Below, piece by piece: positions 8,123 through 59,751 of a stretch of DNA of 64,000 nt. The translations under genes and the position numbers were made by a program. Every line of letters begins with the position of its first letter. Within the stretch, counting starts at the first letter, position 1. Source of the stretch: an uncultured Gammaproteobacteria bacterium (GTDB lineage Bacteria; Patescibacteriota; Patescibacteriia; UBA9934); the NCBI GenBank assembly GCA_964452565.1, contig CAYVLY010000001.1:142638-206637 (forward strand), written 5' to 3'. The notes beneath the pieces are model-generated. The model was not told where the DNA came from. It saw only the letters and a list, made by a program, of their open reading frames with translations, and did not search any database.

Positions 8123-8920
8123 CTATTTGTTTTTAATAAATTGATATACAAACCAACCAATCGAATAAATTATAAACGGCAGGCTTAGCCATTGCCCCAT
8201 TGTTAGTCCAGCCTCAAGTGTATGATATTCTTTCACGAATTCGACCAGGAATCGTGTTGAGAAGTAAAGAAGGATGAAGGTGTGAGTCAAGAAAAGGCTC
8301 TCCTCATTCCCAAGGGGGAGCCGGAGGGGGTTGCCATTCTTTGATCTCCGATGCAGCCATATTAAGATTCCGAAGATGACAAAGGCAATAAGTGCTTCGT
8401 AGAGTTGCGACGGATGCCGTCCAATTGGGTCAAGTTCAAAAAGAGGGAACTGTACGGCCCAAGGGAGATCAGTTGCACGCCCTACAATCTCAGAGTTAAA
8501 GAAATTTCCGATTCTAATGAACCCGGCTACTAACGGTATTGGAATAACTAAGATTTCAATCAACCTGCGCCAATCAGTTTTTTTGACCCAGACGAATATC
8601 GAAAAAGTGATTATCAAGCCTAAGGCCATACCATGACTTGAAAGTCCACCATGTTGGATCATGAGTATCTCGATCGGATTAGATAAGAAGTATTCAAGAT
8701 TATAAAAAACAATATGGCCAATGCGTGCACCAAGCAACCCACCAAGCGTTAGCCAAATTCCGATATTTAATGCTTCTTCAGGTTTTAGGCCTCGGTCTTT
8801 AAACAGTCTCATTGCCAGCCACAAAGCAAGCCCAACTCCAACACCCAAAAATAATCCATACCAGCGTATTTCAAATCCGCCGGTTGATATTAGGATTGGA
8901 TCTATTGTATTGATCAACAT
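8123..8920 (-). CDS. lgt: prolipoprotein diacylglyceryl transferase
   Basis: N-term FEIRWYGLFLGVGVGLALWLA; GGLLGARIGHIVFYN; HPSQLYEA signature. Confidence 0.85.
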   Translation of the reverse strand: MLINTIDPILISTGGFEIRWYGLFLGVGVGLALWLAMRLFKDRGLKPEEALNIGIWLTLGGLLGARIGHIVFYNLEYFLSNPIEILMIQHGGLSSHGMALGLIITFSIFVWVKKTDWRRLIEILVIPIPLVAGFIRIGNFFNSEIVGRATDLPWAVQFPLFELDPIGRHPSQLYEALIAFVIFGILIWLHRRSKNGNPLRLPLGNEESLFLTHTFILLYFSTRFLVEFVKEYHTLEAGLTMGQWLSLPFIIYSIGWFVYQFIKNK

Positions 8921-8963
8921 AATACAGGCTCATTTAGACCAACTCATGATATCATAAACACAT

Positions 8964-10229
8964 ATGCAAAAAAGATGGCTTAGAATTATTGCCTTTATTT
9001 TGGCCATAAATTTTTTGGTTTTGCCGGCTACAGACCTTCGTGCATCAGATTGTTGGTATACTCACATGACCAGGCAAATGTCAGATTGTTCTTATGCACA
9101 CAATGATTGCTCATGGGCTTGCGTATCAATACAAGATAGTGAAGATGCCATTTCATGTTTTGATAGTTGTAGCGCTATTGCTGATTCATGTCGATCACAA
9201 GCTTCGGCTGATTATGGCGCATGCATCGATGCTGAGTCTGCAAAAGACTATACAGATACAGCGGCTGGAACTCTAATCGAAGATGAGGAGCCCGTCGATG
9301 ACGTGTCTGCAGATGAAGAACCTATTGATATTGAAGATGATCAAAGCCAGGATCAGGAGACAAAAGATGATCTAGAGCCGGAGGAGGAACAAGAGGATAA
9401 GCCTGTTGAGGATCCGATCGAACCAGAGGCTGAGGATACTGAGGTAGATCAGCAAAAAGACGATATTGACTCTGATGAAGAGCCTGAAACAGACTTCGAT
9501 GCGAGTGATGCAAAAGAAGAGCCTGCTGGGACACCTGAAGAGTCAGAATCAAAACCTGCATTACAAGATGAAAGAGAGGTTGTCGAGTGGATGAAGGGTG
9601 CTCTGGAAATATACACCAACGCAAAGGATCTAGAGACATTTTTTGAAAAAGGAAAGTTTGATGCATATAGCAGGGCCTCACTTGCAATGGATCTTGGAAA
9701 CGGGTTCATTACTTTGATGGACGAGTTGAATAAGGGCACATCTTTTGAGGACGCATTAGCAAAGGCAACAATCGACACTGCGGCATCAGCTGCGTTTATG
9801 TTACTGCCACCCCTCAAAGCTGCTGAAATACTTGCGACAATGCCAGATGCCATACTTAAAACACTTGGATTTGATGATAATAGTTCGGTCCGTGCAGCTA
9901 CAAAATATGTTGCAGAACACTCGCCAAGTGCTTTTGTTAAAGCAACTACAAGCGCAATGATAAAGACGGGAAGCTGGGATAATGTCGCGGGCGCACTTAG
10001 TATTGCGGCTAATGATGTTAGGGATGCGCAAGGATTTGGCGCAACAGTCAGAGAAACAGGAAATCTCATTGGAACAGCAGTAGGTGCTGTTCCTGTTGCT
10101 GGCGCAATGGTGGTAAGAGATGGAGTTGATTATGTTGTAACTGGCGTAAAGGTGATATTTGGCGGTATTGCAGGTTGGTTTACTGGTGAGGATGATGTGG
10201 CTGATAATCCGTATGGATTGCAGCCCTGA
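8964..10229 (+). CDS. secreted acidic Cys-rich hypothetical protein
   Basis: Signal peptide, Cys-rich N-terminus, long D/E-rich stretch, C-terminal Gly/Ala-rich region. Confidence 0.4.
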   Translation: MQKRWLRIIAFILAINFLVLPATDLRASDCWYTHMTRQMSDCSYAHNDCSWACVSIQDSEDAISCFDSCSAIADSCRSQASADYGACIDAESAKDYTDTAAGTLIEDEEPVDDVSADEEPIDIEDDQSQDQETKDDLEPEEEQEDKPVEDPIEPEAEDTEVDQQKDDIDSDEEPETDFDASDAKEEPAGTPEESESKPALQDEREVVEWMKGALEIYTNAKDLETFFEKGKFDAYSRASLAMDLGNGFITLMDELNKGTSFEDALAKATIDTAASAAFMLLPPLKAAEILATMPDAILKTLGFDDNSSVRAATKYVAEHSPSAFVKATTSAMIKTGSWDNVAGALSIAANDVRDAQGFGATVRETGNLIGTAVGAVPVAGAMVVRDGVDYVVTGVKVIFGGIAGWFTGEDDVADNPYGLQP

Positions 10230-10264
10230 CTTTATATAATAGAATCAAATTAATTAATTTAGAT

Positions 10265-12769
10265 ATGAAAAGGACAATTTCGACAATTACTATCTTCGCT
10301 TGTGTTGCCAGCTTCCTATTGCCAACATTGCGGGCTAGAGCTGCTGATATAGATGCATCTGCTGGAGACCTCATTAAAAATGAGTCATTATCAGCGGTTT
10401 ACTACTACGCAGCTGATGGTAATCGTTATACATTCCCAAATGAGAAAACTTACTTCACTTGGTACGATGATTTTGATGATGTTGTGACAATTTCAGATGA
10501 TCAGTTAGCAGACGTCCCTCTTGTTGGTGTTGTAACATACAAACCAGGGGTTCGTATGGTTAAAATAGAGTCTGACCCTAAGGTCTATGCAGTTGCAGGT
10601 GGTGCAGTATTGCGCTGGGTAACTACAGAAGAGATTGTAACAAGCTTGTATGGAAGTGCGTGGAATACATACATAGATGATATTCCTGTTGCATTTTGGC
10701 CGCACTATTCTTTTGGTAATGATATTGCGTCAGATGGTCAATATAGTAAGGACGAAGAGGAAGCAGGTGCTGATAGTATTCAAGATGAATTGGATGCTGT
10801 AGACGATTCTGATGAGGATTCTTCGGGTGACGAGGACGATACAGACGATTCATCAGATGATGAGGACTCAGATGATACAGATGATGCCGACGACTCTGAC
10901 GATAGTGAAGATACGGATGACGAGGCCGTCTATGACATGGTATTAATAGGTAACGTCCCAGACGGCAATCAGCCACCAACAAATTCATTTTTACTTGGCG
11001 ATACAAACTTCTGCGCACCGATATCAGCTGCCAATGTTACCGAATATTGGGATACGGTAATTGGTGATAGCAATGCAGATGATGTTAACGCAGATTTAAA
11101 TGTCGTCGAAACCGTTGCAGACTGGATTGGCTTTTTCATGAATACAAATGATGTTGGAAGTATAGATAGAAACTCAGGGCTAGGCTTTGGTACGCCAATT
11201 ATTAATATTGCATCAGGAATTATTGATTGGACGATTTGGGATGGTGTCGATGGGAGCGACTATGAATTCGACGACCCATGGTTTGATCTAGCCGGTAAGG
11301 AAGACTACACATCATGGGATATTGAAACAATAAGTTTTGACGATGTCTCTGAGTCGTCTGCATGGACGCTATATATAAATGAGATTGATGCTGGTCAGCC
11401 ACCAGTGGTATCTTTTGAATATTGGAATCCACAAGAAACTACATTTGATGATTTAGAAAATAGCATCTCATTTTATACTTGGGGTGATGAAATAGATGTT
11501 GCTGATGATGCTGATTTGAGCCCAGATGAAATTGAGGAAAAATGGTATACAAATTCATCAGAGGAATATTCAACAGGACACGCTGTTACAGGGGTTGGAT
11601 ATATCCAAGATTATGATATGGGGGATGGCGTCAGCCGTGACTGGGCTATTGTTCATGACAATTGGGATACCACAGCAGAAAACATAGCAGTCCCATGGGA
11701 AAATTGGTCATCTACCACAAGCATCGATCCGGAGCCAAATACAGTCCCAGAGATTCCAGAAATTGATGATCCTGGCGACTTTGTTACCATTGGGGATGAT
11801 TATGATGTGACATGGGAAAGTGTGCGAGGTGCTAAGAATTATTGCATCGACTGGGACATCTCTCCTGGATTTGAGTCAGGACTAGGCGCATGTACCTATG
11901 GTGGAAGCAATACTGAGTATTCATTCACGGGAACAACAGATGAGATGAATTGGTTGAGACAGGATCATTTCTATAGAGTAAAAGCCTGCAATGATATGGG
12001 ATGCAGTGATTGGAGCGAGATTGTGGATATGGTGGTATTAGAGATAGATCCAATAGTAGTTCCAGATGACTACTTATATATTCAGCAGGCCTTAAATTCT
12101 GCATCAGCGGGAGATACAGTCTATGTAAAGGATGGGGTTCATGAAATGAGTTCAATGACCATGCCAGATGCTGTATATCTTATTGGTGAGAGTGTTGAAA
12201 ACACAATAGTAGAAATTTATGATAATATCGGAGTAACTACAGGCGACTATACATTGATAATGAACATTACATTCAACTCGGATGATGGAACAATGTTTTA
12301 TGTATCAGGTGTCACATCTAGTTTCTTGAATGTGTTATTTGAAGCAGAATCCTCGCAAGTCATTCAGGTCACTTACGGTGGTGATCTATATGTCTACAAC
12401 AGTACACTCTATTCAACTGGTGCTTATGGAGGAATATGGACTGATATAGAGTACGTAAATAGTGTAGATATTGTGAACACGATCGTTCAGGGATTTAGAT
12501 ACGGGCTATATGTACAGGGTTCAAGTATAGGCACATCTTCCTACTCAAACGTATTTGGCACTGACGATTCTATGAATTGGTATGGTAATATCGTGCAGGA
12601 TTCTACAGATATATCAACTGACTCAATGTTTGTTGATGAGTCAGGTCGTGATTATAGATTAAGTGATTCTTCTCCATGTATAGATGCTGGACAGCCTTCG
12701 ATGATTTATAATGATGTGGATGGAACTGTAAATGACATGGGTGCATTTGGTGGTGCATATGGATGGTAG
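10265..12769 (+). CDS. large secreted protein: shared N-terminal domain, D/E-rich linker, FN3-like and beta-helix-like C-terminus
   Basis: Signal peptide; N-terminal ~110 aa paralogous to ORF 13273..14145; Asp-rich low-complexity region; C-terminal repeats typical of parallel beta-helix. Confidence 0.5.
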   Translation: MKRTISTITIFACVASFLLPTLRARAADIDASAGDLIKNESLSAVYYYAADGNRYTFPNEKTYFTWYDDFDDVVTISDDQLADVPLVGVVTYKPGVRMVKIESDPKVYAVAGGAVLRWVTTEEIVTSLYGSAWNTYIDDIPVAFWPHYSFGNDIASDGQYSKDEEEAGADSIQDELDAVDDSDEDSSGDEDDTDDSSDDEDSDDTDDADDSDDSEDTDDEAVYDMVLIGNVPDGNQPPTNSFLLGDTNFCAPISAANVTEYWDTVIGDSNADDVNADLNVVETVADWIGFFMNTNDVGSIDRNSGLGFGTPIINIASGIIDWTIWDGVDGSDYEFDDPWFDLAGKEDYTSWDIETISFDDVSESSAWTLYINEIDAGQPPVVSFEYWNPQETTFDDLENSISFYTWGDEIDVADDADLSPDEIEEKWYTNSSEEYSTGHAVTGVGYIQDYDMGDGVSRDWAIVHDNWDTTAENIAVPWENWSSTTSIDPEPNTVPEIPEIDDPGDFVTIGDDYDVTWESVRGAKNYCIDWDISPGFESGLGACTYGGSNTEYSFTGTTDEMNWLRQDHFYRVKACNDMGCSDWSEIVDMVVLEIDPIVVPDDYLYIQQALNSASAGDTVYVKDGVHEMSSMTMPDAVYLIGESVENTIVEIYDNIGVTTGDYTLIMNITFNSDDGTMFYVSGVTSSFLNVLFEAESSQVIQVTYGGDLYVYNSTLYSTGAYGGIWTDIEYVNSVDIVNTIVQGFRYGLYVQGSSIGTSSYSNVFGTDDSMNWYGNIVQDSTDISTDSMFVDESGRDYRLSDSSPCIDAGQPSMIYNDVDGTVNDMGAFGGAYGW
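10750..10925 (+). repeat. D/E-rich low-complexity coding repeat (GAT/GAC/GAG-rich)
   Basis: Translation EEEAGADSIQDELDAVDDSDEDSSGDEDDTDDSSDDEDSDDTDDADDSDDSEDTDDE. Confidence 0.5.
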
Positions 12770-14221: not shown

Positions 14222-14428
14222 TTAGATAATAATGAACAGGGAAGTGATGATCACTAGCCCAGCAAGAATTGAGAAACATCCTCCTGAACTACCATAGGCT
14301 GGTCTGGGACCGCCTTTAAAAGACTTGCGCGGCGGACGTGGTCCAAGCCGCTTTGGACCTTTTCTTAATGCTGGTCGTCGAGGGCCTCGAACCTTACCCA
14401 TTTTTCCCATTGGTCGTTTTACTTTCAT
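14222..14428 (-). CDS. small basic Arg/Pro/Gly-rich protein with C-terminal TM helix (hypothetical)
   Basis: 68-aa ORF, terminator immediately downstream. Confidence 0.25.
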   Translation of the reverse strand: MKVKRPMGKMGKVRGPRRPALRKGPKRLGPRPPRKSFKGGPRPAYGSSGGCFSILAGLVIITSLFIII

Positions 14429-15377: not shown

Positions 15378-15468
15378 GTATCTATCATATCAAATCAGTG
15401 CTCAGTATTGAACCTTTACTATTGATCTCTTAGAAAGAACATGATATAGTTTCCCCGCAAATCATTAA

Positions 15469-15481
15469 TCCGGGGTAGCTC
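15469..15481 (+). repeat. partial copy of tRNA-Asn 5' end (13 nt) followed by palindromic GC-rich sequence
   Basis: TCCGGGGTAGCTC is identical to the start of the intact tRNA at 15856. Confidence 0.5.
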
Positions 15482-15550
15482 CCGCCTTCGTTCCTATCGG
15501 AACTTCGGCGGGCAGGCAGCATGCAAATGCCGCTTCGCTACCCTAATTAT

Positions 15551-15601
15551 TCCGGGGTAGCTCAGCGGCACCTGCCTGCCGGCAGGCAGGGAGCAATTGG
15601 C
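15551..15601 (+). repeat. partial copy of tRNA-Asn 5' half (nt 1-20 and 21-31) split by a 20-nt perfect palindrome
   Basis: TCCGGGGTAGCTCAGCGGCA[cctgcctgccggcaggcagg]GAGCAATTGGC matches tRNA-Asn positions 1-31. Confidence 0.6.
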
Positions 15602-15607
15602 GCAATT

Positions 15608-15865
15608 ATGAAATATACAATTTACGCCATTAAGAGCAAGAAAGATAAAAGAGTATACGTCGGCTTTACAGATAATCTTAATAGACGTTTAAGAGAACAT
15701 AATTCGGGGTTTGTAAAATCTACTAAGGGTTACAAACCTTGGATCGTGTTCTATACTGAACAGACCCACCTTCGATCTGAGGCTAGACGAAGAGAAAAAT
15801 ACCTCAAATCAGGTTGTGGAAAAGAGTTTCTGAAATCAGTTAGAGATAACAACATTCCGGGGTAG
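15608..15865 (+). CDS. GIY-YIG nuclease family protein (UPF0213/YhbQ-like)
   Basis: MKYTIYAIKSKKDKRVYVGFTDNLNRRLREHNSG... GIY-YIG core; 3' end runs into tRNA-Asn. Confidence 0.65.
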   Translation: MKYTIYAIKSKKDKRVYVGFTDNLNRRLREHNSGFVKSTKGYKPWIVFYTEQTHLRSEARRREKYLKSGCGKEFLKSVRDNNIPG

Positions 15866-15930
15866 CTCAGCGGCAGAGCAATTGGCTGTTAACCAATGGG
15901 TCGTGGGTTCGAATCCCACCCCCGGAGCCA
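15856..15930 (+). tRNA. tRNA-Asn(GTT)
   Basis: Manual fold: acceptor TCCGGGG/CCCCGGA, D-arm GCTCAGCGGCAGAGC, anticodon stem ATTGG/CCAAT with loop CTGTTAA, T-arm GTGGGTTCGAATCCCAC, encoded CCA. Confidence 0.85.
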
Positions 15931-17541
15931 AGAAGAATGGATGGTAGAAATACCTTCCATTTTTCTTTTGTCTTGGCTATTTTTGTTTGGTTCTAACCTT
16001 AGGTACTCCTTTTCGAGTTCAGGATAGCTCTCTGCGATAGGTACGAACCATTCGTTCAGTTGAATCTTTAGGTTTCCGTCAATAATCTCAAAGTCTGATC
16101 CGAGAGCATTAAGAATCTCACGCTTAGTTCTAACGTCTCCATTTAAGAACCTCGTGTGAGCGTATGTTGCAAAATCAAAAGTCTGCTCTGTAAGCTCTAT
16201 CCATTTTTCTGCTCGTTGTTCTGTTCGTTCGATTTCTGACTTGTACTTTTCTAACTCGGACTTGATGCGTGCCTTTTCTTTTAGGTATTCCTCATCATTT
16301 ATGAGTTCCTTTATCCTCATCTTTGTAAGGCTGTCCATCTCATTCTGCTTCATCTGATAAGCCTTTGTTTGAGTTTCGTAAACCTGAGTTCGTTTCTTTA
16401 CTTCTTTTTCATGTTCATTGCCCAACACCTCAAGAGCCCAGTCCCGAAACTGCGGAAGAATCGTGATTTTTATAAGTTCACGTTCAATCTGCTCTTCGAT
16501 GTTCTCAACTCGTAGGTTTTTGCGCTGTGTGCAGTCAATATCACGCTTTTTGTTCGTACAATGATAGTAAGTGTAGTGTTTTACCTCTTTCGTTGACTTG
16601 ATGAACTTTTGCTTGGTTTGTGCTGTGTAGTTACAGCCACATTCTCCGCATCTAATCATTCCAGTAAATGAAAACTCATGTGTTCTGGGCCTTGGCTTTC
16701 CCCGTTTGCCAAGTAGCCTTTGAACACGGTCAAACTCATCGAGGGTGATCATGGGCTCGTGTGCACCCTGTTTCCATTCTTTACGATATGAAAATAAACC
16801 AGCATAAAAGGCGTTGTTGAATATTCTATAAACTCCGCTGTATGAAAGAGGATTTCCCCCTATACGTTTCATTTTTCTACTAGTCAGGCCCCATTCGTTA
16901 TTTGCTATATCTACGATTTGCCTTGGTGTATACGTGCCAGTAAGCATAAGGTCCCACATCTTCCTTACTATTTGGAACCGATCTGGGTCTGGGATAATGA
17001 TATGCGTTTCATCGTCTGTAACATGGTTCAGATATCCCAGAGGAGCCATATTGGGCATCCAGCCCAATTCAACCTTTCGCTCCATGCCTCTGATGGTATT
17101 TTTTCTAAGATCAAGGATGAATTGGTTCGCAACACCGCTCTCAACACTCAAAATCAAGGCATTGTCATTTGGTCTGTACTCTCTATCAAATGTGCGAACT
17201 GATTGAAGTATCTCTTTTTGCAAAAGCCACTGGATAGTCCCGCTATCAACTGGGTTTCTCGATAGACGATTGATTTGCCAGCAGAGAATACCCTCAGCGT
17301 CACCTTTACGAATTCTTTGAATCATATCCTCAAAAACAGGCCTATTGTTTGGCTGCTTTGCCGACTTGGACTCTGTGAGACGATCAACAACTGTCAGACC
17401 AAGCTCTTTTGCGAGCTTGTCTAATCTTTCGAGCTGATCATCAATTGATTGTACCTGCCGATCCTCACTTTCTGAGGACTTTCTAGCGTATATAAAGTAT
17501 TTCATATAATCGTAATCAAAAGGACGGTTCTGGCTACCCAA
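15889..17541 (-). CDS. large serine recombinase (resolvase/integrase family)
   Basis: N-terminal catalytic domain YARKSSESEDRQVQSIDDQ... (Ser-recombinase motif); recombinase and zinc-ribbon domains (CGECGC...YYHC); C-terminal 18 aa are antisense translation of tRNA-Asn. Confidence 0.85.
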   Translation of the reverse strand: MGSQNRPFDYDYMKYFIYARKSSESEDRQVQSIDDQLERLDKLAKELGLTVVDRLTESKSAKQPNNRPVFEDMIQRIRKGDAEGILCWQINRLSRNPVDSGTIQWLLQKEILQSVRTFDREYRPNDNALILSVESGVANQFILDLRKNTIRGMERKVELGWMPNMAPLGYLNHVTDDETHIIIPDPDRFQIVRKMWDLMLTGTYTPRQIVDIANNEWGLTSRKMKRIGGNPLSYSGVYRIFNNAFYAGLFSYRKEWKQGAHEPMITLDEFDRVQRLLGKRGKPRPRTHEFSFTGMIRCGECGCNYTAQTKQKFIKSTKEVKHYTYYHCTNKKRDIDCTQRKNLRVENIEEQIERELIKITILPQFRDWALEVLGNEHEKEVKKRTQVYETQTKAYQMKQNEMDSLTKMRIKELINDEEYLKEKARIKSELEKYKSEIERTEQRAEKWIELTEQTFDFATYAHTRFLNGDVRTKREILNALGSDFEIIDGNLKIQLNEWFVPIAESYPELEKEYLRLEPNKNSQDKRKMEGISTIHSSWLRGWDSNPRPIG

Positions 17542-17558
17542 CTGCGCCTATACCAAAG

Positions 17559-17633
17559 TATCCCGCTTGCTGGCAGAACCGCCCATTTGAGGCAGTAAAC
17601 GGAATAGTTCTATATTGGTATTCAGTTGGGTAG
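17559..17633. promoter_or_regulatory. nested imperfect inverted repeats upstream of serine recombinase gene (candidate recombinase binding/att-like site)
   Basis: GGCTACCCAACTG ... CAGTTGGGTAGC plus GGTTCTGGC...GCTGGCAGAACC. Confidence 0.3.
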
Positions 17634-17641
17634 CACACTGA

Positions 17642-18256
17642 TTATAACTTATTTCGCAACATCATTTCCAGTTCTTCTGCCCTTGGCGCAGACCCCTCAT
17701 AACGAGAAAGTCTTTTCAGATATCTGAGGTATCGCTTCGTGGGCCGTCCTTTCCAGTATTTATACTTGACCTCCGTATTCATTAAATAGCCTTCAGCCTT
17801 GAATAGCTTCCCCAGAGCTCCAAAATAGCCCGTGTGCGTCTCTTGCTGGCTTTCATAGGCCAGATCATAGCAATGCCTGCACCCAAAGTATTTATCCGCT
17901 AAATAGAGGCTGCCTACACGCCTTCTGCAAGGAATTCCATCTTTCACAAGAGGACATGTAAACCAGTAACGAACCCCGCCGAAGTAACAAGGGGTAGTTG
18001 TTAGATCTACACTGTAATCTAAATCTTCACTCTCACCATTCCATCTGGTAGTTGATGTATAGGTGCATCTCATTGTTGAGTTGGTATTATCAACTAATAT
18101 ACTGATCCTGCCAGTAACTTCTCCGCATCTTCTCCAAGTGATTTCACCGCCCACATAATGAGGTTGAAGATAACCTAGCCTCTTAAGGGAGGTTGTACTG
18201 AGGTCTTTGTGCTCCTCGCATGTTTCTTTGCGCATAACCCTTTTTATCGAAATCAA
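17642..18256 (-). CDS. Cys-rich hypothetical protein (island)
   Basis: 204-aa ORF with multiple CxxC-like pairs. Confidence 0.35.
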   Translation of the reverse strand: MISIKRVMRKETCEEHKDLSTTSLKRLGYLQPHYVGGEITWRRCGEVTGRISILVDNTNSTMRCTYTSTTRWNGESEDLDYSVDLTTTPCYFGGVRYWFTCPLVKDGIPCRRRVGSLYLADKYFGCRHCYDLAYESQQETHTGYFGALGKLFKAEGYLMNTEVKYKYWKGRPTKRYLRYLKRLSRYEGSAPRAEELEMMLRNKL

Positions 18257-18262
18257 TAGGAC

Positions 18263-18796
18263 TTATAGGGAATTGTTCATCATTTTATTCTTTGTATCAT
18301 TGTAGCTATCAAGTATCTGTTCTCGTGCTGATTTGCTAGTTTTTTCCGTTTCACTGGGATAGCTTACGCTATCCTGATTTATATTTTCTTCTTTTATATT
18401 ATCTTCACTTAGCTTCTCTTGTGCTTCATAACCGAAGGCAGGTGACAGACCATTGGCAACCAAAATATCCGAATAATCGCTAGGTTTGCTTCTATCTCTA
18501 CGAAGGGTTTGATACTTGTGCCAATTAGGATGGTAACCTGCTAGTCCCTTTTTTGTTTCACCTATGGTGATTAGCCCGCAGCCATGCATCTCATCAAACA
18601 TCTTTTCAATGGTCGGTACGCCAATCCTGTCGCTATGAAAGACTTTACGTTTCCAATATCTCGCATCTGCACGAAAACATCCCTCATCATCTGCTCCAAC
18701 TACTAGTCCAATAAACAACAATCTTGCAGTTGGTTTGAGTTGAATAAACTGCTCGCAGTCCCATATTCGTTCATGAACCATTCTTTTTCTGCTCAT
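18263..18796 (-). CDS. hypothetical protein (island; possibly replication-related)
   Basis: 177-aa ORF in the same operon as the recombinase. Confidence 0.3.
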   Translation of the reverse strand: MSRKRMVHERIWDCEQFIQLKPTARLLFIGLVVGADDEGCFRADARYWKRKVFHSDRIGVPTIEKMFDEMHGCGLITIGETKKGLAGYHPNWHKYQTLRRDRSKPSDYSDILVANGLSPAFGYEAQEKLSEDNIKEENINQDSVSYPSETEKTSKSAREQILDSYNDTKNKMMNNSL

Positions 18797-18989
18797 AATT
18801 ATTTTTAATCATAATTTGTCTTTTTTTGGTTCCCGATAATTCACCTGAGGTAATTGGCGCATAGCATATTTTTATGGCGCTCAGAAGCCTTGTAGCTCGA
18901 TCTAAGGCCTCTTGTACCTCAAGACGGTATCCGAACTCTTGCTCGAATAAGTAAATAAAGCTCTCAAGTTGTTGTTTTGAGAGCTCCAT
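18771..18989 (-). CDS. small hypothetical protein
   Basis: 72-aa ORF, TGA stop, overlaps the next gene by 26 nt. Confidence 0.25.
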   Translation of the reverse strand: MELSKQQLESFIYLFEQEFGYRLEVQEALDRATRLLSAIKICYAPITSGELSGTKKRQIMIKNNYEQKKNGS

Positions 18990-18991
18990 AA

Positions 18992-19246
18992 CTACGATCG
19001 TGCTCGATACTTCAACATTCGCAGGTTCTCATGAAAAGAACGTGCATCAACATCTAGCTTGTTGCTCCAGTAAAGTGCCACGATCTCATCAATTTCATCG
19101 TCACGTTCGAAGGTAAATTTTGCTTTCAATGGATTGGACTTATCAATTGCTTTAACAACATATCCAACAGTGGAAAGCGCAGTCGAAAGTCCAATATCTG
19201 AATTAACCAAATACTGAGCTAAGGGAAGGTGTTCTGGTCTTTGCAT
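18992..19246 (-). CDS. small hypothetical protein
   Basis: 84-aa ORF. Confidence 0.3.
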   Translation of the reverse strand: MQRPEHLPLAQYLVNSDIGLSTALSTVGYVVKAIDKSNPLKAKFTFERDDEIDEIVALYWSNKLDVDARSFHENLRMLKYRARS

Positions 19247-19318
19247 AATGTAATATGTAACAAAACTAGGTTATAAACCTAGTTTCATATACTTTGTTTT
19301 TTCTGTCGTGACAGGAAA

Positions 19319-20233
19319 TTACATCTTTCTTGTCTGGTCAAACCTAGATGACTCTTGCACCAGTCTCTTTATAAGTTTATTTATGGCCTCAAAAGTTAGG
19401 TCATCACTGTACTTTTCGTCCAGTCTTACTGCAATCTCAGATAGTTTCATGCCTTTGCGCTGCATGATGTAGGCGTCAAGGGCCTTGGGAAGTGCTTGCT
19501 TCCTACTATCCTTTCTAGCTGGCACGGGAAGTTCTTTTTCTCGTTCCTTTTGTATCTCCTTGTAATTTGTCTGAAGTAGCCTCTGCATTTCTTTTAAATT
19601 GCAATATGGCGGAAAGCTGACTTTTAAAACTGTTTCTGCACTATCTTTTTCAATTTCTATTGACAGTTTGCCACTGTGTTGTTTCCTTGTGAAATTGGAA
19701 TTCAGCCAGTATGGTGGCCCCTCACGTTCATCATAGACTGTATTTTGGATGATAATATTATCAAGAATCGGTGGAAGGAAAGTGAATTCCGCATCTTCGT
19801 ATGCCATAAACTGAGCACGCTCCTTACTCATCCCCCTTTCGGATATATATTCCTTAACTTTGAAGGGCGTGAATCTGAAGTGGTCATGCCAGTAAAGCGA
19901 TGGAATTAATTTGTATTTCTTGATCAGTTTTTCGATTCTTTTTCTATACGCATCGCTATGATTTTGCGCTATAAAATTGCGTACAATCTTGGTCGAGTCC
20001 ATGCTGTCTGTTGGAATGAGAAACTTGGGATACCATCTCTGAATCGTGCTTCTAATTAAATTCACGTCGAATACAAAGTCTTCATTTATACAGAGGTAGA
20101 CCAACTCCTCGATAATTTGCATGTCGTGATCGTCATAAAAGTTGTAAGTAGCTAACTCGTCAAAAAGAATAGCCAAGCTATCGAGTTGGATTGGTTCAGG
20201 ATCTAATATAATCTTAATCTCATCTTCATCCAT
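19319..20233 (-). CDS. hypothetical protein
   Basis: 304-aa ORF, first gene of the minus-strand island operon. Confidence 0.35.
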   Translation of the reverse strand: MDEDEIKIILDPEPIQLDSLAILFDELATYNFYDDHDMQIIEELVYLCINEDFVFDVNLIRSTIQRWYPKFLIPTDSMDSTKIVRNFIAQNHSDAYRKRIEKLIKKYKLIPSLYWHDHFRFTPFKVKEYISERGMSKERAQFMAYEDAEFTFLPPILDNIIIQNTVYDEREGPPYWLNSNFTRKQHSGKLSIEIEKDSAETVLKVSFPPYCNLKEMQRLLQTNYKEIQKEREKELPVPARKDSRKQALPKALDAYIMQRKGMKLSEIAVRLDEKYSDDLTFEAINKLIKRLVQESSRFDQTRKM

Positions 20234-20324
20234 ACTAGTAAATTACAACCTAATTATTACTTAGTAAAGGTTCACGAAAGAACTTTATCGTGGTTTAATG
20301 TAAATTGATTAAATTAAATTAGAT

Positions 20325-20948
20325 ATGGGCACAGTTACTACGATACTATTAGGACTAATTGCGTACATTTTATGGCGTATTTATAGACAGCGAGAGGATG
20401 AGAAGACCGAGCAATATGCTGCAAAATTACGAGAAAAGAGGGATGCAGAGCGGGCCATTTTTGAAAAGCAGTACCCCCATCTTATCGGCAATGTAGACCA
20501 TACTTGGATAGAGCTTTTTTCTAAGTATGCAGAACAAGGTTTGTTGTTGAAAATGTCATTCTTGCTATATCTGCAAGACTCAACAAAGATGGAGCTCTCC
20601 GAGGGCTCTATAAAATGGGATGACCTATGGGCACTCTCAGAGGAGCTGTTAGAACATCTGGAAAAGTATCACGAAGGTACAGTGGAAGAGCATGAGTTGG
20701 CACTTGCTGCATACTGGCAAAATGCCGCTACGGCTGTTGGAAAGCTAATCGAACAGAGCCCCACAATAAAGGGAGAAGATATTGACGCACCACCTTTCAC
20801 AAACATAATAGAGATTCCGAATTTTTTTCCCAAAAAAGAAATACACCCAGAGCAGGAATTTAATTTCATGGAGCCTGATCACTCTTTTCCCAGAAATGCG
20901 AATGGATCTGATCACATTAGGGCAAAAATGAAAAAACAGGGAATTTGA
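20325..20948 (+). CDS. membrane-anchored hypothetical protein
   Basis: N-terminal TM helix, 207 aa. Confidence 0.35.
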   Translation: MGTVTTILLGLIAYILWRIYRQREDEKTEQYAAKLREKRDAERAIFEKQYPHLIGNVDHTWIELFSKYAEQGLLLKMSFLLYLQDSTKMELSEGSIKWDDLWALSEELLEHLEKYHEGTVEEHELALAAYWQNAATAVGKLIEQSPTIKGEDIDAPPFTNIIEIPNFFPKKEIHPEQEFNFMEPDHSFPRNANGSDHIRAKMKKQGI

Positions 20949-20960
20949 TATTAATATAAA

Positions 20961-21860
20961 GTGGATATGGAAAATCACCTAATGTATTTAGATGAATCGG
21001 GCGTTGCGAATCTGGGAGATCAGAAACATAAATACTTTTTTATAACATCGGTAACAGTTGAAAGGAGCATTGACAGAGAGGTCTCTGCTTACTTCAGTTT
21101 CATAAAAAGGCGTCATGGATTGGATTGCAAAAATACTTTGCATGCTTATGATGTTTTTGAAAATAAGGGGCATGAAAATTACATAACAGAAAATAAAATC
21201 TGTAAAAAAATTGCCAATTCGATCGGTGAATTTGTAGAGAACGCACCTTTTGATATCAGGGTCTACTATATAGATAAAGATAAGTTAAGAAAAAAGATGG
21301 GTGTCCCTGAAGGCTATCAATTCAAAGGTGCCCAGAAGCACAAAGAGGATAAGGAGTTGCCTTATGAAATAATTGCCAGAAAACATTTCTTTGAATTTGC
21401 TAAGTATTTAAAAAAGAAGAGGGCCATCGGGTCAGTAATTGCTGAAAGTAGAAGGGGGGCTGACAAAATCCTACTAACATCATATCTAGACGCTCAAGAT
21501 AAAAATATTTTCAGTAAAGATAAACAAATGTTCAAAAATGCAACCCTCGCCAAAGAACACATACATTCTATTTGTTTTGCTGGTAAGGGAAGTCTGAAAG
21601 GTGGGCTAGAATTTGCTGATATTATTTCTTATTGCGCATACAATGACATTGCTGGCAATTTCCCAGAACAAAGGAATGACAGTAGGGGCATCAAAGTAAT
21701 GTGGGGGCAAATAAAAAAACAGATTTATAAATCTGCTCCTCAAGAAATTACGCCTGCCATGATGAAGAAATTGGCAAATGATAGGATTAACGAGAGCGCC
21801 AAGCGTGTTAAGCAGAGACTGTCTGAATTCAGCGACCTCGTGAATCCCACCCGAAGGTAA
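20961..21860 (+). CDS. hypothetical protein, DUF3800-like (LDESG motif near N-terminus)
   Basis: MYLDESGVANLGD... start resembles DUF3800 family proteins. Confidence 0.3.
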   Translation: MDMENHLMYLDESGVANLGDQKHKYFFITSVTVERSIDREVSAYFSFIKRRHGLDCKNTLHAYDVFENKGHENYITENKICKKIANSIGEFVENAPFDIRVYYIDKDKLRKKMGVPEGYQFKGAQKHKEDKELPYEIIARKHFFEFAKYLKKKRAIGSVIAESRRGADKILLTSYLDAQDKNIFSKDKQMFKNATLAKEHIHSICFAGKGSLKGGLEFADIISYCAYNDIAGNFPEQRNDSRGIKVMWGQIKKQIYKSAPQEITPAMMKKLANDRINESAKRVKQRLSEFSDLVNPTRR

Positions 21861-21958
21861 GAGTCCACTTAACTAAAAAGTAACAGTTATTTAGGCGATA
21901 GTAAAGTGGATATTTATTGAAATTGATTAAATGAGCTAATTTTACACTACTTTTAGCT

Positions 21959-22570
21959 ATGAATGCTATCAAAGAAAAGTTGCTAAAGACTATAAGATCA
22001 AATATAAAGTATAAATCTATACAGGATATAGATCGTATTGATTTCAAGTCCTTTAAAGCACTTATAAGGGCAGTTGAGATGGGTGAAATAAAATTAGGCA
22101 TGGATAACACCGCTGCTAATCAACTGGCAAGAACGAAGATATTTGGAGCTTTTAGCTTTTACCTTTTTATGTTCCTAGCAGCGTCTTGGATGTGGGTTTC
22201 CATTGCTGCGATTGTATTGGCCGTTTTAATGTCGGAATATTGGCTACTGGCTGCTATCCCAGTTTCTATTATCGGGTTGATGACTGCTAATCCGTATAAT
22301 CCAGCAAAAAAGTTTTTTAGCCTAGTATTCATCATTCTCTGCATTTACGTATTATTCGGATTAATAGGTGGCTTTGAGACACTGCACTATTTGTCACTCT
22401 CCTACGTTATTGTATTTCTGGCGACAGCCTATGTTTATGACATGAACCAAAAGCTAATGCATGATTTAGCACTGGAGTCGGAGGAATGGTTTATTTATCT
22501 ATTTCAAAGTAGAGCCGTAGCGATTTTGGAAGATGGCAAGAATCCTATAACGGAAGAGATCGAGTTATGA
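21959..22570 (+). CDS. polytopic membrane hypothetical protein
   Basis: Several hydrophobic helices. Confidence 0.35.
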   Translation: MNAIKEKLLKTIRSNIKYKSIQDIDRIDFKSFKALIRAVEMGEIKLGMDNTAANQLARTKIFGAFSFYLFMFLAASWMWVSIAAIVLAVLMSEYWLLAAIPVSIIGLMTANPYNPAKKFFSLVFIILCIYVLFGLIGGFETLHYLSLSYVIVFLATAYVYDMNQKLMHDLALESEEWFIYLFQSRAVAILEDGKNPITEEIEL

Positions 22571-23223
22571 ATGAGTATTCAAAAGAACTAGCTGCGAAAT
22601 ACACTCAAGGGCGTGATGAGTTTAAGGATGCTGACTCAAAGCTCTTTGAATTTGTACAACGAGTTGGCATTGAAGATAAGGACGTGCTGGATCTTGGATG
22701 TGGAGATGGAAGATATGCTGCAAAGTTTATCGAAATGGGTGCAGGGAGTGCTAAGGGTATTGATATAAGCCCTGCAATGATTGAATTGGCCAAGGAGCGA
22801 CGAAGTAACATCGAATTCACAATTGGAGACGCAGTAGATTTGCCATATGAAGATAATAGCTTTGACATTATCTTTAGCAACTTTGTACTTCAGCACTGTA
22901 AAGATACTCGAAAGGTCTTTAATGAAATTGCACGAGTATTAAGAAAAGATGGATATTTTGTCGGTACATTTAACTCAATAGACACTGATAATAAGGGAAT
23001 CCTGAATCAGGAGATGCCCATTCTACTCGGTCAAGATAATCCAATTACTGTTTACGACCTAATGAAGCTCGATGAAGAGTATCTTGAAGCCATTAAAGAC
23101 GCTGGACTGGAAGTGATTGAATACGTCGACGAACCAAATGCCTGCGCCTTTATAGATCCAAATTTCGAGCACTATTCGGATATTAAAAAGTTAAAGACTA
23201 TCGCTTGTTTGTTAAGAAAATAA
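22567..23223 (+). CDS. class I SAM-dependent methyltransferase
   Basis: Motif I VLDLGCGDGRY; DIIFSNFVLQH. Confidence 0.65.
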   Translation: MNEYSKELAAKYTQGRDEFKDADSKLFEFVQRVGIEDKDVLDLGCGDGRYAAKFIEMGAGSAKGIDISPAMIELAKERRSNIEFTIGDAVDLPYEDNSFDIIFSNFVLQHCKDTRKVFNEIARVLRKDGYFVGTFNSIDTDNKGILNQEMPILLGQDNPITVYDLMKLDEEYLEAIKDAGLEVIEYVDEPNACAFIDPNFEHYSDIKKLKTIACLLRK

Positions 23224-23224
23224 T

Positions 23225-23725
23225 ATGAACATTGCATTAGATGATAAGCTGGAGAAAGCAGTCCGACTGCTCATTGAGTACGTTCCTGAGGAAAAGGATC
23301 GAAAAAAGAACATAATTACACATGCTCTCAGGGTCGGAATGTACCTTTATGAGAATAATTACTCAGAAGATGTTGTAATTGCTGGATTTTTACACGATAT
23401 AGTTGAATGGACTGATAGCCCGCAGGAGACACTTCGGGAAGAATTCGGTCAGCATGTGTTGGATATAGTACTCGCAAATACTAAAGATAGAAATATTGAA
23501 GATAAGCCAGAGCGAAGAAGGGATATGATTGAGCGCTGTCAAAGCGTTGGGAAGGACGCCCTTATCGTGAAGGCCGCAGACACAATTGATAGCTATAACT
23601 TTTATAGATCGGCAAACAACCCAGATGAGACGCAAAGAGCAATCGACATAGCAAAACTTTTATCAAGCGTGGTTACACAGGAGGAGAAAGATCCAATTTT
23701 CGATAAGTTAAGTGCTCTTGAATAG
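23225..23725 (+). CDS. HD-domain phosphohydrolase
   Basis: HALRVGMYL ... AGFLHDIVE (H...HD motif). Confidence 0.6.
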   Translation: MNIALDDKLEKAVRLLIEYVPEEKDRKKNIITHALRVGMYLYENNYSEDVVIAGFLHDIVEWTDSPQETLREEFGQHVLDIVLANTKDRNIEDKPERRRDMIERCQSVGKDALIVKAADTIDSYNFYRSANNPDETQRAIDIAKLLSSVVTQEEKDPIFDKLSALE

Positions 23726-24172
23726 TTCTAACAGCATCAACCGTGCGGAGCCATGAAGGAGTGACCAGTTTTGGTCGCTTTTTCTTTTTGGTCACCCTTC
23801 ATGGCTGTCGCCCTAAGTGATACGAGCCCAGCGAGTATCTACTTCTGGGCGAGCCATAGTATAATTAGGGCATGTATTACGTTTACATATTAAAATGTAG
23901 CGACAACAAATTCTACACGTGATACTCTGCAGACTTAAAGAAAAGGTTGCAATTACACCTATCTGGACGAGTGTTCTCGACCAAGGGTAGATTGCCAGTC
24001 GAGTTAGTATTCTATGAGGCATTTATAAATCAGCAAGATGCCAAGCGTCGTGAGATGTACTTGAAGACCACTGCTGGCAAAAGAGCAATTAAACTCATGC
24101 TTCGCAAATATCTCGCAAAACAATAACTTACAGTGTTATTTTGTATACCCATCGTGAACAGCGGAACTGTGG
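23721..24172 (+). repeat. direct repeat copy 1 (~450 bp) carrying GIY-YIG gene; near-identical to 25603..26054
   Basis: Identical sequence apart from the first ~25 nt; contains long hairpin GCCATGAAGGAGTGACC...GGTCACCCTTCATGGC, a TATAAT box, the GIY-YIG ORF and a terminal hairpin. Confidence 0.85.
23872..24126 (+). pseudogene. GIY-YIG (UPF0213) gene with in-frame TGA at conserved Gly codon (disrupted under code 11; intact if UGA=Gly)
   Basis: MYYVYILKCSDNKFYT[TGA]YSADLKKRLQLHLSG...LVFYEAF...; TGA at 23920-23922 replaces the Gly of the YTG motif. Confidence 0.6.
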
Positions 24173-24204
24173 TAAAATTATAAGTGTTAATATAATTGTG
24201 ATTT

Positions 24205-25065
24205 ATGATAGATAAACCAGTTCCCGAGGAGGCAAGAAAAGAATTTGAAAGGATGCAAAATCCAGAAATTGTCGCAACTGATTTAGAGGGTAATGCTCCT
24301 GAAGTTGGTGCTACAAAAATTATTATGCAGAGGCATGAAAAATATGTGCGGGGCGATGACGAGGGTCAGCCATTGGGTAGTCTAACTGAAGAATCAGCAG
24401 AAAAAGCATATCAACAAAGCAGAAGAATAGTTGAACAAATGCTAGATTCTATTGAGGATGATTTAGATGAGATCGATTTTCTTGTAGTTGGCAGTAGTAC
24501 ACAATATAAGGGCAAGGGACAAAGGAGCAGAGAGACTGCACAGCAAGCACTTCAAGCTTTACGTGACGTGCTTGAAGAGAGGGGTGTTGATGGTGGTCAG
24601 ATATTAAACAATAGATCAAAAGCAAAAGATGTAGCCACGATCACTCGAATGAGAGTAGATAGGATATTCAATGAATGGCCAGAGTACGCAGCTTTTCTTG
24701 AAGATAAATACGGAAATCAAACACAAAAATTTTGGCAGGCTTTTGAAGAAGATTGGCACCCTTATGAAAGAAGGGCATTTGGTGCAGAGGGGCCTGATGA
24801 AATGGACGAAAGATTTGCAAGTTATATAAAAACACTTGCTAAGTTTTCCGGTTTTCACCATTCAAAGCATCAAGATAGACGGCTGGTTCTCTGGAGCGTA
24901 TCGCATTACGATACAGTAAGTCCCTATATAAAACGTCACATAACTATGACGGATCCAAACCAATATGTGGCTGTTGATTACGGTGCAGGGATCAATATAG
25001 ATATTGATCCTGATGGGAATCCTACATGTGACTTTCGTGGGAAAAAATACGAAGTTAGTCTTTAG
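24205..25065 (+). CDS. histidine-phosphatase-superfamily-like protein (paralog of 28620..29522)
   Basis: RHEKY near N-terminus and LWSVSHYDTV (RH...SH motifs); aligns with the 28620 ORF. Confidence 0.4.
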   Translation: MIDKPVPEEARKEFERMQNPEIVATDLEGNAPEVGATKIIMQRHEKYVRGDDEGQPLGSLTEESAEKAYQQSRRIVEQMLDSIEDDLDEIDFLVVGSSTQYKGKGQRSRETAQQALQALRDVLEERGVDGGQILNNRSKAKDVATITRMRVDRIFNEWPEYAAFLEDKYGNQTQKFWQAFEEDWHPYERRAFGAEGPDEMDERFASYIKTLAKFSGFHHSKHQDRRLVLWSVSHYDTVSPYIKRHITMTDPNQYVAVDYGAGINIDIDPDGNPTCDFRGKKYEVSL

Positions 25066-25067
25066 AT

Positions 25068-25595
25068 ATGCTTACAAAGTTTTGTGACGCAGAAACGATC
25101 TTCAATAAGTTTCTAAAAAAGTATAAACAACATAAACGAGGTCTTTTCATCGTTGCACCATCGGGCGCAGGAAAGACATATTATGTTAATCATCAGGATG
25201 AATATGATTGGATTGATGGTGACGAAATTTGGATGGCAACAGGCGCTCAGCCTGACAGGGCATGGTGGACCGAGGGTTTAGAAGTTATAAATCACGTAGA
25301 TCAAAGGTGCGATGTTACAACTGAAGAGTGTAGACGTTTGGGATTATGGGTGATAGGAGCGTCCAACTCTTGGCTCATCCCTGATGCCGTAGTAATTCCA
25401 GATTTAAGAATTCAAAAAAAATACATAGTCAAGCGTGAAGACGAAGCATATGACGGAGGTGCAACGAGCAAGGACTTTGATCAAGTTATTTCTCATAGAA
25501 AGATAATTCTAAACCACGCTAAGAAAAATAAAGTGCCAGTATTCAAAACTATCGAGGAGGCAGTGGCTTTTCTCAGGAAGAAGTACAGTATGTAA
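25068..25595 (+). CDS. P-loop NTPase / small kinase-like protein
   Basis: Walker A VAPSGAGKTYYV. Confidence 0.45.
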   Translation: MLTKFCDAETIFNKFLKKYKQHKRGLFIVAPSGAGKTYYVNHQDEYDWIDGDEIWMATGAQPDRAWWTEGLEVINHVDQRCDVTTEECRRLGLWVIGASNSWLIPDAVVIPDLRIQKKYIVKREDEAYDGGATSKDFDQVISHRKIILNHAKKNKVPVFKTIEEAVAFLRKKYSM

Positions 25596-25602
25596 GCATG
25601 TT

Positions 25603-59675: not shown

Positions 59676-59751
59676 TGGGGAGTGGAGAAGTGGATCAACT
59701 CGCCGTATCCAGATTTGGTATTCGCTGGTTCGAATCCAGCCTCCCCAACCA
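59676..59751 (+). tRNA. tRNA-like gene with non-canonical anticodon arm (identity unresolved)
   Basis: Perfect 7-bp acceptor TGGGGAG/CTCCCCA, T-arm GCTGGTTCGAATCCAGC, encoded CCA; only possible anticodon stem GTATC/GGTAT with loop CAGATTT leaves a 2-nt variable region. Confidence 0.35.

Follow-up and report, generated by a model that had tools for sequence, protein, structure and literature searches.

A tRNA-Asn gene with a recurrent GIY-YIG cassette at its 5′ end and a serine recombinase element at its 3′ end

In a 64,000-nt stretch of DNA (hereafter, the window) from an uncultured bacterium of the Patescibacteriota, a tRNA-Asn(GTT) gene is overlapped by two others, a small gene for a GIY-YIG nuclease at its 5′ end and, at its 3′ end, one for a large serine recombinase (LSR). 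We propose, with a probability of about 0.6, that this tRNA gene is a docking site for two unrelated selfish DNAs, a GIY-YIG cassette on the 5′ side and an LSR element on the 3′ side. The two belong to large and apparently undescribed families of tRNA-associated selfish DNA. The features at and around the tRNA gene are as follows.

15422–15450, + strand: sigma-70-like promoter (TTGATC-17-TATAGT, extended TG), ending some 19 nt before tRNA fragment 1
15469–15481, + strand: tRNA-Asn 5′ fragment 1, nt 1–13
15481–15543, + strand: debris, with a CCCGCC..GGCGGG hairpin (15481–15512), a half-arm of the palindrome, CAGGCAG (15513–15519), and an inverted tRNA piece
15551–15570, + strand: dead tRNA copy, nt 1–20
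15571–15590, no strand: PAL, a perfect 20-nt palindrome, CCTGCCTGCCGGCAGGCAGG, between tRNA nt 20 and 21 (D loop/D stem)
15591–15601, + strand: dead tRNA copy, nt 21–31
15608–15865, + strand: stand-alone GIY-YIG nuclease gene, 85 aa (Pfam PF01541, 2e-16)
15856–15930, + strand: intact tRNA-Asn(GTT) with encoded CCA (ARAGORN; Rfam, 72 bits)
15889–17541, − strand: LSR gene, open reading frame (ORF) of 550 aa (538 aa as called by NCBI)
15931–15972, + strand: terminator hairpin for the tRNA, inside the C-terminal coding region of the LSR gene (dG −19.7 kcal/mol, z = −6.1)

The 5′ end of the tRNA, TCCGGGGTAGCTC, occurred exactly three times in the window, at 15469, 15551 and 15856, where 0.05 occurrences were expected by chance. 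The initial annotation had described these three copies, a 31-nt second copy split by a perfect 20-nt palindrome, and a GIY-YIG ORF between this copy and the tRNA that runs into the tRNA. All of this was borne out: the palindrome separates tRNA nt 20 from nt 21 at 15571–15590, and the stop codon of the ORF is nt 8–10 of the tRNA. Only the last copy was called as a tRNA (15856–15930) by Rfam and by ARAGORN within 15380–16000, as the annotation had expected. No other Rfam match was found in this interval even at E ≤ 1, and the leader matched no family. The promoter-like site at 15422–15450 is probably the original promoter of the tRNA-Asn gene, now driving the whole array; Bacteroidota relatives had a TAnnTTTG box at the equivalent position, as read by eye.

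Fragment 1 is a remnant of an older cassette unit, of which the region 15469–15545 would be the wreck. An inverted copy of tRNA nt 5–20, absent from the initial annotation, was found at 15528–15543. From 15466 to 15548 the oldest tRNA fragment, the CCCGCC..GGCGGG hairpin and the inverted tRNA piece gave a closed three-way fold (dG −39.8 kcal/mol, z = −4.8). Extra hairpins resembling this debris were also seen in the relatives L053 and L073, and decayed fragments with other hairpins farther upstream, like those of 15469–15545, were seen at several relative loci.

The GIY-YIG ORF likely starts at the ATG at 15608, which gives 85 aa, and stops at the TAG at 15863–15865, corresponding to U8-A9-G10 of the tRNA. 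Its match to PF01541 scored 60.3 bits (E = 2e-16), well above the curated cut-off of 22.6, while the NCBIfam model for group I intron endonucleases gave 20 bits against a cut-off of 56. In an alignment of 30 sequences, Y6, Y17, R27 and E63 were invariant and H31 was conserved in at least 90%. By analogy to I-TevI, we take these to be the two tyrosines of the GIY and YIG motifs, the catalytic arginine, the His/Asn and the metal-binding glutamate. The catalytic domain occupies the whole length of the protein, and no linked sequence-specific DNA-binding domain is present. The closest solved structures were those of UPF0213 proteins (1YWL and 1ZG2) and Slx1. We know of no function for the UPF0213 proteins themselves, and a literature search returned nothing relevant to it. 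The clade has its own C-terminal motif, KSGxGKEFLK, and the family comprises 3,674 cluster representatives at E ≤ 1e-10.

The arrangement on the 5′ side is a recurrent cassette, judging from the sequences of its relatives. An alignment of homologues retrieved 473 relatives of the GIY-YIG gene in species-representative genomes, and the best 80 loci were fetched. A same-strand tRNA started between −38 and +11 nt from the stop of the ORF in 47 of these 80 loci. ORF and tRNA overlapped by exactly 10 nt in 22 of the 80, so that the stop codon is the TAG at positions 8–10 of the tRNA. The gap between the conserved C-terminal GKEFLK-S and nt 1 of the tRNA was as little as 4–5 nt. The adjoining tRNA was Arg(CCT) in most Bacteroidota and Asn(GTT) in Patescibacteria; Arg(ACG/TCG/CCG), Leu, Thr, Lys and Phe were also found. 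The Leu-associated GIY-YIG ORFs, from three phyla, formed one clade.

The dead tRNA copy was a regular part of these loci. At 52 of the 57 type-1 loci, the 200 nt ahead of the ORF held an exact copy, 12 nt or longer (median, 20), from the 5′ part of the locus's own tRNA; a control search with another type of tRNA found such a copy at none of the 57. The dead copy and the live tRNA shared an identical acceptor-strand variant in 21 of 24 Arg(CCT) loci, across 8 variants. This tracking of lineage-specific acceptor-stem variants held even in syntenic, evidently vertically inherited loci of the Sphingobacteriaceae. The dead copy was 30 to 73 nt long, and the position and number of PAL inserts within it varied. 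At L022, for example, it was an almost complete tRNA with three PAL-type inserts. Cyclobacterium had tandem arrays of up to 4 units with 91–100% identity. A mirror-image form of the cassette also exists, in which the live tRNA is followed by a terminator, the ORF and then a PAL-bearing tRNA copy. At L004, two 93-nt copies of tRNA-Arg (73 nt plus PAL; 1973–2065 and 2141–2233) stand in tandem behind the intact gene and were called by ARAGORN as tRNAs of unknown type.

The initial annotation had suggested an integration hotspot with insertions from both sides and the GIY-YIG gene as a very small mobile cassette. Insertion from both sides agrees with our results, since the 5′ cassette recurs beside tRNAs in several phyla and the attachment (att) sites attL, attB and attP and two attR-like junctions could be reconstructed on the 3′ side (below). 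The hotspot reading was thus largely right; that the cassette is mobile we infer from its distribution. Candidates for the empty sites that the annotation had sought also exist: tRNA-Asn genes of other Patescibacteria (L083 and L084) have a single 5′ end, no cassette and no PAL, and 12 tRNA-Asn loci have no LSR. The GIY-YIG/palindrome cassette tied to tRNA 5′ ends is widespread and apparently undescribed; we found no literature that links GIY-YIG genes with tRNA leaders or with REP-like repeats. Some cassette-bearing tRNA-Asn genes carry a group I intron in the anticodon loop (L008, 1764–2047; L033, 1755–1993; L069, 1867–2133), adding a third type of selfish DNA to this tRNA.

PAL, recorded in the initial annotation as a feature of this one locus, is present as described. 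It did not arise here by chance: across the cassette family it is a nearly invariant component. The copy at 15571–15590 is the only one in the window. PAL or a close variant was found within 140 nt upstream of the ORF at 65 of the 80 loci and just downstream at most of the others. It is inserted between consecutive nucleotides of the tRNA copy with no loss or duplication of tRNA bases, mostly at TA^G. The insertion points were 20/21 and 21/22 (D loop/D stem), 26/27 and 9/10, and occasionally 55/56 in the T loop. The sister species L052 and L065 shared PAL variants. As many as 24 of the 149 best representatives of the GIY-YIG family included PAL-encoded peptides in mis-called termini.

PAL also occurs outside the cassettes, standing alone at more than 150 of the sampled sites. 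The sample comprised 169 exact sites of the 20-mer: 42 in 35 stretches from IMG/VR and at least 127 in 120 metagenome stretches, among the matches listed. The GIY-YIG family adjoined 1 of the 42 viral sites. It lay within 450 nt of 9 of the 127 metagenomic sites among the matches listed, compared with about 1% or less expected for a one-copy gene. Many sites were in viral contigs of high GC that had no gene of this family nearby. Orphan PAL copies fell in long ORFs less often (25 of 87, 29%) than random positions did (64 of 87, 74%). Orphan sites outside tRNAs had neither a target duplication nor a clear target motif, and the idea that PAL is the tip of larger hairpins or is flanked by target-site duplications was not supported. 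A second type of GIY-YIG gene occurred near orphan copies only at background levels, and no paper containing the PAL sequence was found. On these sequence comparisons, PAL behaves like a dispersed palindrome of the REP type, and yet it is present in essentially every cassette. PAL was also seen in the variable region of phage tRNA-Met genes in IMG/VR (L129, around 2284; L106, around 8616); ARAGORN called only the L129 copy, in which PAL may mimic a long variable arm.

As to how the cassette recombines, what PAL does and how the nuclease acts, we infer the following. The 5′ side would be a "tRNA-leader cassette" of about 0.3 kb, in which a GIY-YIG gene has been inserted between a tRNA promoter and its tRNA. 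A unit made of a tRNA-homologous segment and the ORF would recombine with a resident tRNA gene by homologous recombination or double-strand-break repair, entering by Campbell-type insertion or by unequal exchange. Such homology-driven insertion would leave the ORF between two direct tRNA copies, a live and a dead one, in either order. It would also keep the dead copy identical to the live tRNA, generate tandem arrays and tie the nuclease lineage to the type of tRNA. The Leu clade that spans three phyla and the missing DNA-binding domain would follow from it as well. Which copy stays alive would depend on where the exchange falls with respect to PAL or the truncation. The original promoter would drive the dead copy, the ORF and the tRNA in turn, so that the nuclease is expressed from the tRNA promoter. 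The nuclease probably supplies the break that drives recombination. PAL would be a separate small palindromic element, always in the dead copy. It could be the binding or cutting site of the nuclease, or it could split the repeat into pieces too short for a deletion that removes the cassette, thereby stabilising it.

A bolder version of this proposal is tentative, and we think it doubtful: the protein of about 80 aa and PAL would form a two-part selfish system of an undescribed kind. The nuclease would park in the leader of an essential tRNA by homology-driven recombination, borrow its promoter and its U8-A9-G10 stop, and maintain or spread PAL as a GIY-YIG counterpart of RAYT/REPIN, having moved between Bacteroidota, Patescibacteria, Ignavibacteria and their phages.

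On the 3′ side, the LSR had all three expected domains above their cut-offs (Resolvase, PF00239; Recombinase, PF07508; Zn_ribbon_recom, PF13408), and its catalytic-serine motif YxRKSS was invariant. Its stop codon is the complement of the TTA at 15889–15891 in the anticodon loop of the tRNA. The initial annotation was correct about this 550-aa ORF ending inside the tRNA. The antisense tail is, however, shorter than the 18 aa it gave: the overlap is 42 nt, that is, 13 aa (WLRGWDSNPRPIG) and the stop, and the last 13 codons are antisense tRNA in the integrated state. At E ≤ 1e-30 the family had 4,184 homologues. Among the top 120, the tail ran antisense into a tRNA in 108; 90 had a C-terminus of the form W-xxx-x-[DGEN][SL][NDH], which is the antisense of CCA, the acceptor strand and the T-arm, and 18 more stopped 1–3 residues past the tryptophan. 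The LSRs of L083 and L084 (65% and 60% identical) terminate at exactly the same place in the tRNA-Asn anticodon loop as the LSR of the window, without the GIY-YIG cassette. Conversely, an LSR of this kind is found at several loci that have the GIY-YIG gene beside tRNA-Asn. Hence the elements are independent of each other but have a common target. Tail motifs of other members of the clade imply further tRNA targets (tRNA-His in L085). One contig (L260) carries two LSRs, the second of which (8833–10361) ends antisense in tRNA-Gln. A search of IMG/VR for a free phage form found no close relative; distant relatives there lay at contig ends, adjoining other tRNAs, and cultured phages had 27% identity at most.

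A hairpin and a T-run filled the stretch from CCA to the LEP codons of the LSR ORF in 8 of 9 LSR-occupied loci (not L082), the LEP codons standing about 59 nt after CCA as counted by eye. The replacement terminator of the tRNA is thus encoded by the element. CCA was encoded in all 9 of the LSR-occupied tRNA-Asn genes but in only 6 of the 12 LSR-free ones (21 loci), which fits CCA as part of the att core.

The att sites and the integrated element were laid out as follows.

15923–15930, no strand: common core of attL, CGGAGCCA, tRNA nt 69–76; the T-arm to its left is the B arm of attB
17642–23725, no strand: cargo of the element, namely a 204-aa ORF, a replication-initiator-like protein of 177 aa, ORFs of 72 aa, DUF5659, 304 aa and 207 aa, DUF3800, 203 aa, a SAM-methyltransferase and an HD domain
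23700–23753, + strand: attR1, a P arm (..AATAGTTCTAACAGCATCAACCGTG) and the core CGGAGCCA at 23746–23753
23754–24170, + strand: displaced original tRNA trailer (a long hairpin), then a second, UPF0213-like GIY-YIG gene (23872–24126) with an in-frame TGA
25582–25635, + strand: attR2, a second, different P arm and the same core at 25628–25635
after attR2 to about 26,050, + strand: 98%-identical copy of the trailer and of this second GIY-YIG gene (25754–26008)

attL and attR share a core of 8 bp, CGGAGCCA. Six LSR homologues had in common an alternative tail, W-L-x-x-[VW][DN]x[VFI][RG][TN]. DNA of the attP type was obtained for four of these six and for P0184, five in all (L260–L264). In all five, it read TGG CTCC.., followed by TGGGA or GTGGA at nt 13–17 and TT[ACG]GAA[CA] at nt 23–29. 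In integrated copies, TGGGA is likewise at nt 13–17, whereas the T-loop TTCGAAC is at nt 18–24, and in the alignment MAFFT opened a gap of 5 nt in attL exactly between these two motifs. In serine integrases, the motif for the zinc-ribbon domain is known to lie 5 bp nearer to the centre in attB than in attP (PMC3783163), and the gap of 5 nt matches this published half-site rule. By sequence, then, the attP arm mimics the T-arm except that its zinc-ribbon-domain motif lies 5 bp farther from the centre, and this large clade of serine integrases uses and mimics the tRNA T-arm.

A search of the window with the P-arm pattern returned exactly two matches (23,700–23,753 and 25,582–25,635), compared with 0.04 per shuffled window. 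Each ended in CGGAGCCA and was followed by the same 0.44-kb segment at 98% identity. When joined to the LSR gene, the two P arms gave the tails WLRTVDAVRTI and WLRIVEDIRTI, both of which fit the consensus of the alternative tail. From these attR-like junctions at 23.75 and 25.63 kb, the element is placed at 15,931–23,745 (7.8 kb). It resembles the 9.2-kb contigs L262 and L263, both of which also have DUF5659. The LSR would have recombined attP with an attB made of the tRNA T-arm, the 3′ acceptor strand and the trailer, with the crossover within CGGAGCCA. As reconstructed, attP is 23,700–23,753 followed by 15,931–15,990, and attB is 15,896–15,930 followed by 23,754–23,800. Integration would leave the tRNA intact, bring a new terminator inside the C-terminal codons of the recombinase and let its ORF read into antisense tRNA.

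The initial annotation had expected a displaced 3′ half of tRNA-Asn on the right of the island. None was present in the window at up to 3 mismatches in 28 nt, nor as exact 11-mers beyond the chance level: an 11-mer match at 21842 was rejected, as its flanks did not fit. Such a half is absent because the core is only 8 bp. The crossover lay in the last 8 nt of the tRNA, not in the anticodon loop, so the body and 3′ half of the tRNA are host DNA and the displaced piece consists of only about 8 nt and the old trailer. No other part of the window held an inverted repeat of the attL zone, and alignment of the left ends of the elements in L083 and L084 gave no shared attR within 10 kb. Both copies of the second GIY-YIG gene (23872–24126 and 25754–26008) have an in-frame TGA at a conserved glycine, codon 17; TGA ends 9 of the 63 long ORFs of the window. 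The 1.4-kb piece between them (24171–25581), with ORFs at 24205–25065 and 25068–25595, has no recombinase and ends in the second LSR-type P arm. It could be what is left of another element, or a satellite.

Several observations weigh against the reading of the locus as a docking site for two selfish DNAs. The closest relative of the flanking gene, for a Na/Ca exchanger, is only 53% identical, and no closely related pair of genomes with and without the cassette at the same site was at hand; exact-protein look-ups for an empty-site comparison returned the same organism only. The cassette of the Sphingobacteriaceae is syntenic and looks vertically inherited, which also fits a resident host gene. 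The nuclease of 85 aa has no DNA-binding domain and no known activity. More than 90% of the sampled PAL copies are remote from any gene of this family and from any tRNA, so the link between PAL and the nuclease is only statistical. On the 3′ side, two attR-like junctions and a duplicated 0.44-kb host segment accompany one recombinase, which one simple integration does not explain, and neither of the two different P arms could be singled out as cognate to the LSR. The attP-type contigs showed no terminal overlap, leaving a free circular form unproven.

One alternative, which we consider unlikely, is that the 5′ arrangement is a resident operon. A host GIY-YIG gene would be co-transcribed with the tRNA, and the dead copy and PAL would be a functional leader, serving as an RNA-processing or stability signal or as an autoregulatory operator bound by a nuclease dimer. 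The position is syntenic across Pedobacter and relatives with an ORF about as conserved as the flanking gene, the catalytic residues are invariant, and PAL is invariant across phyla. The dead copy follows lineage-specific changes of the live tRNA, which could reflect selection, and homing-endonuclease genes of T4 are controlled by upstream hairpins (PMC2988022). Against such an operon, the cassettes are associated with 10 or more tRNA isoacceptors, tandem arrays hold as many as 4 near-identical units, and decayed remnants such as 15469–15545 are left behind. The dead copy ranges from 30 to 73 nt with differing positions and numbers of PAL, the arrangement can be mirrored, the Leu clade crosses three phyla, and related bacteria have tRNA-Asn genes free of the cassette. 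A quite improbable alternative centres on PAL: the nuclease would act in trans on a dispersed palindromic repeat, much as RAYT does on REP/REPIN, and the tRNA duplications would be collateral of PAL insertion into an essential tRNA, survivable only if that tRNA is duplicated. The dispersal of the exact 20-mer over 42 viral and at least 127 metagenomic sites, its depletion from long ORFs (25/87 vs 64/87), the proximity of 9 of the 127 listed sites to the gene family and the presence of PAL in essentially every cassette, with PAL-encoded peptides in 24 of 149 top representatives, all favour it. However, the single PAL of the 64-kb window is at the cassette, many PAL sites in high-GC viral contigs lack the gene, and target duplications or a clear target motif were not seen outside tRNAs. 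GIY-YIG enzymes cut DNA and do not rejoin it, so another activity would be needed, and the fixed junction of ORF and tRNA is left unexplained.

Two further alternatives carry very little weight. If the tRNA were split or contained an intron, the fragments would be exons or halves joined at the RNA level and the ORF an intron-type homing-endonuclease gene. Group I introns do occur in the anticodon loop of the same tRNA in L008, L033 and L069, and GIY-YIG genes are classic passengers of introns (PMC2988022). The initial annotation had named this as one of two outcomes that would overturn its reading, and the window speaks otherwise: no intron model matched in 15380–16000 even at E ≤ 1, a complete, high-scoring tRNA stands downstream of the ORF, and the upstream copies lack a 3′ half and duplicate (nt 1–31), rather than complement, the live gene. 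This explanation is effectively refuted for the window. Least credible of all is chance or an artefact of assembly, in which the repeats and the palindrome come from mis-assembly or an adapter sequence. The genome is derived from a metagenome and PAL is perfectly palindromic like some linkers, but the locus was assembled independently in two sequencing runs, and isolate genomes, one of them a complete chromosome (L020), show this architecture as well. PAL variants common to the sister species L052 and L065, and insertion at exact positions inside the tRNA, also speak against it.

Among known systems, the docked GIY-YIG cassette can be compared with free-standing genes for GIY-YIG homing endonucleases in T-even phages, above all SegB from the tRNA gene cluster of T4 (PMC2988022). 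There, too, a GIY-YIG gene stands between or beside tRNA genes and is expressed with its neighbours, upstream hairpins are common, and spread is thought to use double-strand-break repair that co-converts the flanks. The cassette differs in that its protein is only the catalytic domain of about 80 aa, and it resides in bacterial chromosomes (Bacteroidota, Patescibacteria and others) rather than in phages. It also has a direct duplication of the tRNA 5′ part, a stop codon inside the tRNA and an obligatory 20-nt palindrome. In size and catalytic core the protein equals UPF0213/COG2827 (YhbQ-like) proteins and Slx1, from which its clade is set apart by the KSGxGKEFLK motif and the fixed tRNA context. 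PAL resembles the REP/REPIN sequences associated with RAYT in being a short GC-rich palindrome, mainly intergenic, invariant over large distances and with a copy beside a single small nuclease gene. Here, however, the enzyme is a GIY-YIG protein instead of an HUH Y1 transposase, and the copy number looks low (one in the 64-kb window).

Serine integrases usually target protein genes or intergenic sites, and tRNA targets are typical of tyrosine integrases. The LSR shares with A118/LI, Bxb1 and phiC31 a three-domain recombinase, a short attP/attB core, the lack of a long target duplication and the 5-bp offset of the zinc-ribbon-domain motif between attB and attP (PMC3783163). Unlike them, it targets the 3′ end of a tRNA and uses the naturally symmetric T-arm, mimicked in attP, as a half-site. 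Its ORF crosses the att site so that the C-terminal tail changes on integration, and the replacement terminator lies inside the ORF. Islands made by tyrosine integrases are similar in that the element sits at the tRNA 3′ end and element-supplied sequence keeps the tRNA intact. This element, by contrast, lacks a tyrosine integrase, its shared core measures 8 bp against a duplicated 3′ segment of 15–50 bp, and no copy of the tRNA 3′ end of 11 nt or more is present.

If confirmed, these results would explain thousands of small genes annotated as "GIY-YIG nuclease family protein" without a function in Bacteroidota and candidate-phyla bacteria as parts of tRNA-linked cassettes with a conserved cis element. 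PAL and tRNA-gene DNA would then be substrates to test with these proteins, a family with solved structures for which no activity is known. The results would also mean that tRNA 5′ leaders, and not only 3′ ends, are colonised by selfish DNA. In practice, the cassette yields dead tRNA copies and 93-nt "tRNAs" that confuse annotation. The recombinase clade, with more than 4,000 homologues, would represent natural serine integrases with a tRNA T-arm as attB, which would account for the odd "WLRGWDSNP" tails of these ORFs. As its attP/attB logic can be read from sequence, it could be useful for att-site prediction and integrase engineering.

Two other features of the window were recorded. An odd tRNA-like gene (59676–59751) heads an array of seven tRNAs; ARAGORN gave it a 4-nt anticodon, "ccag", and its Rfam tRNA score was only 41.8 bits. 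It was considered as a hybrid attR and rejected as unrelated. Adjoining the Na/Ca exchanger gene, an ORF of 68 aa at 14222–14428 (− strand) was extremely rich in Lys, Arg, Pro and Gly.

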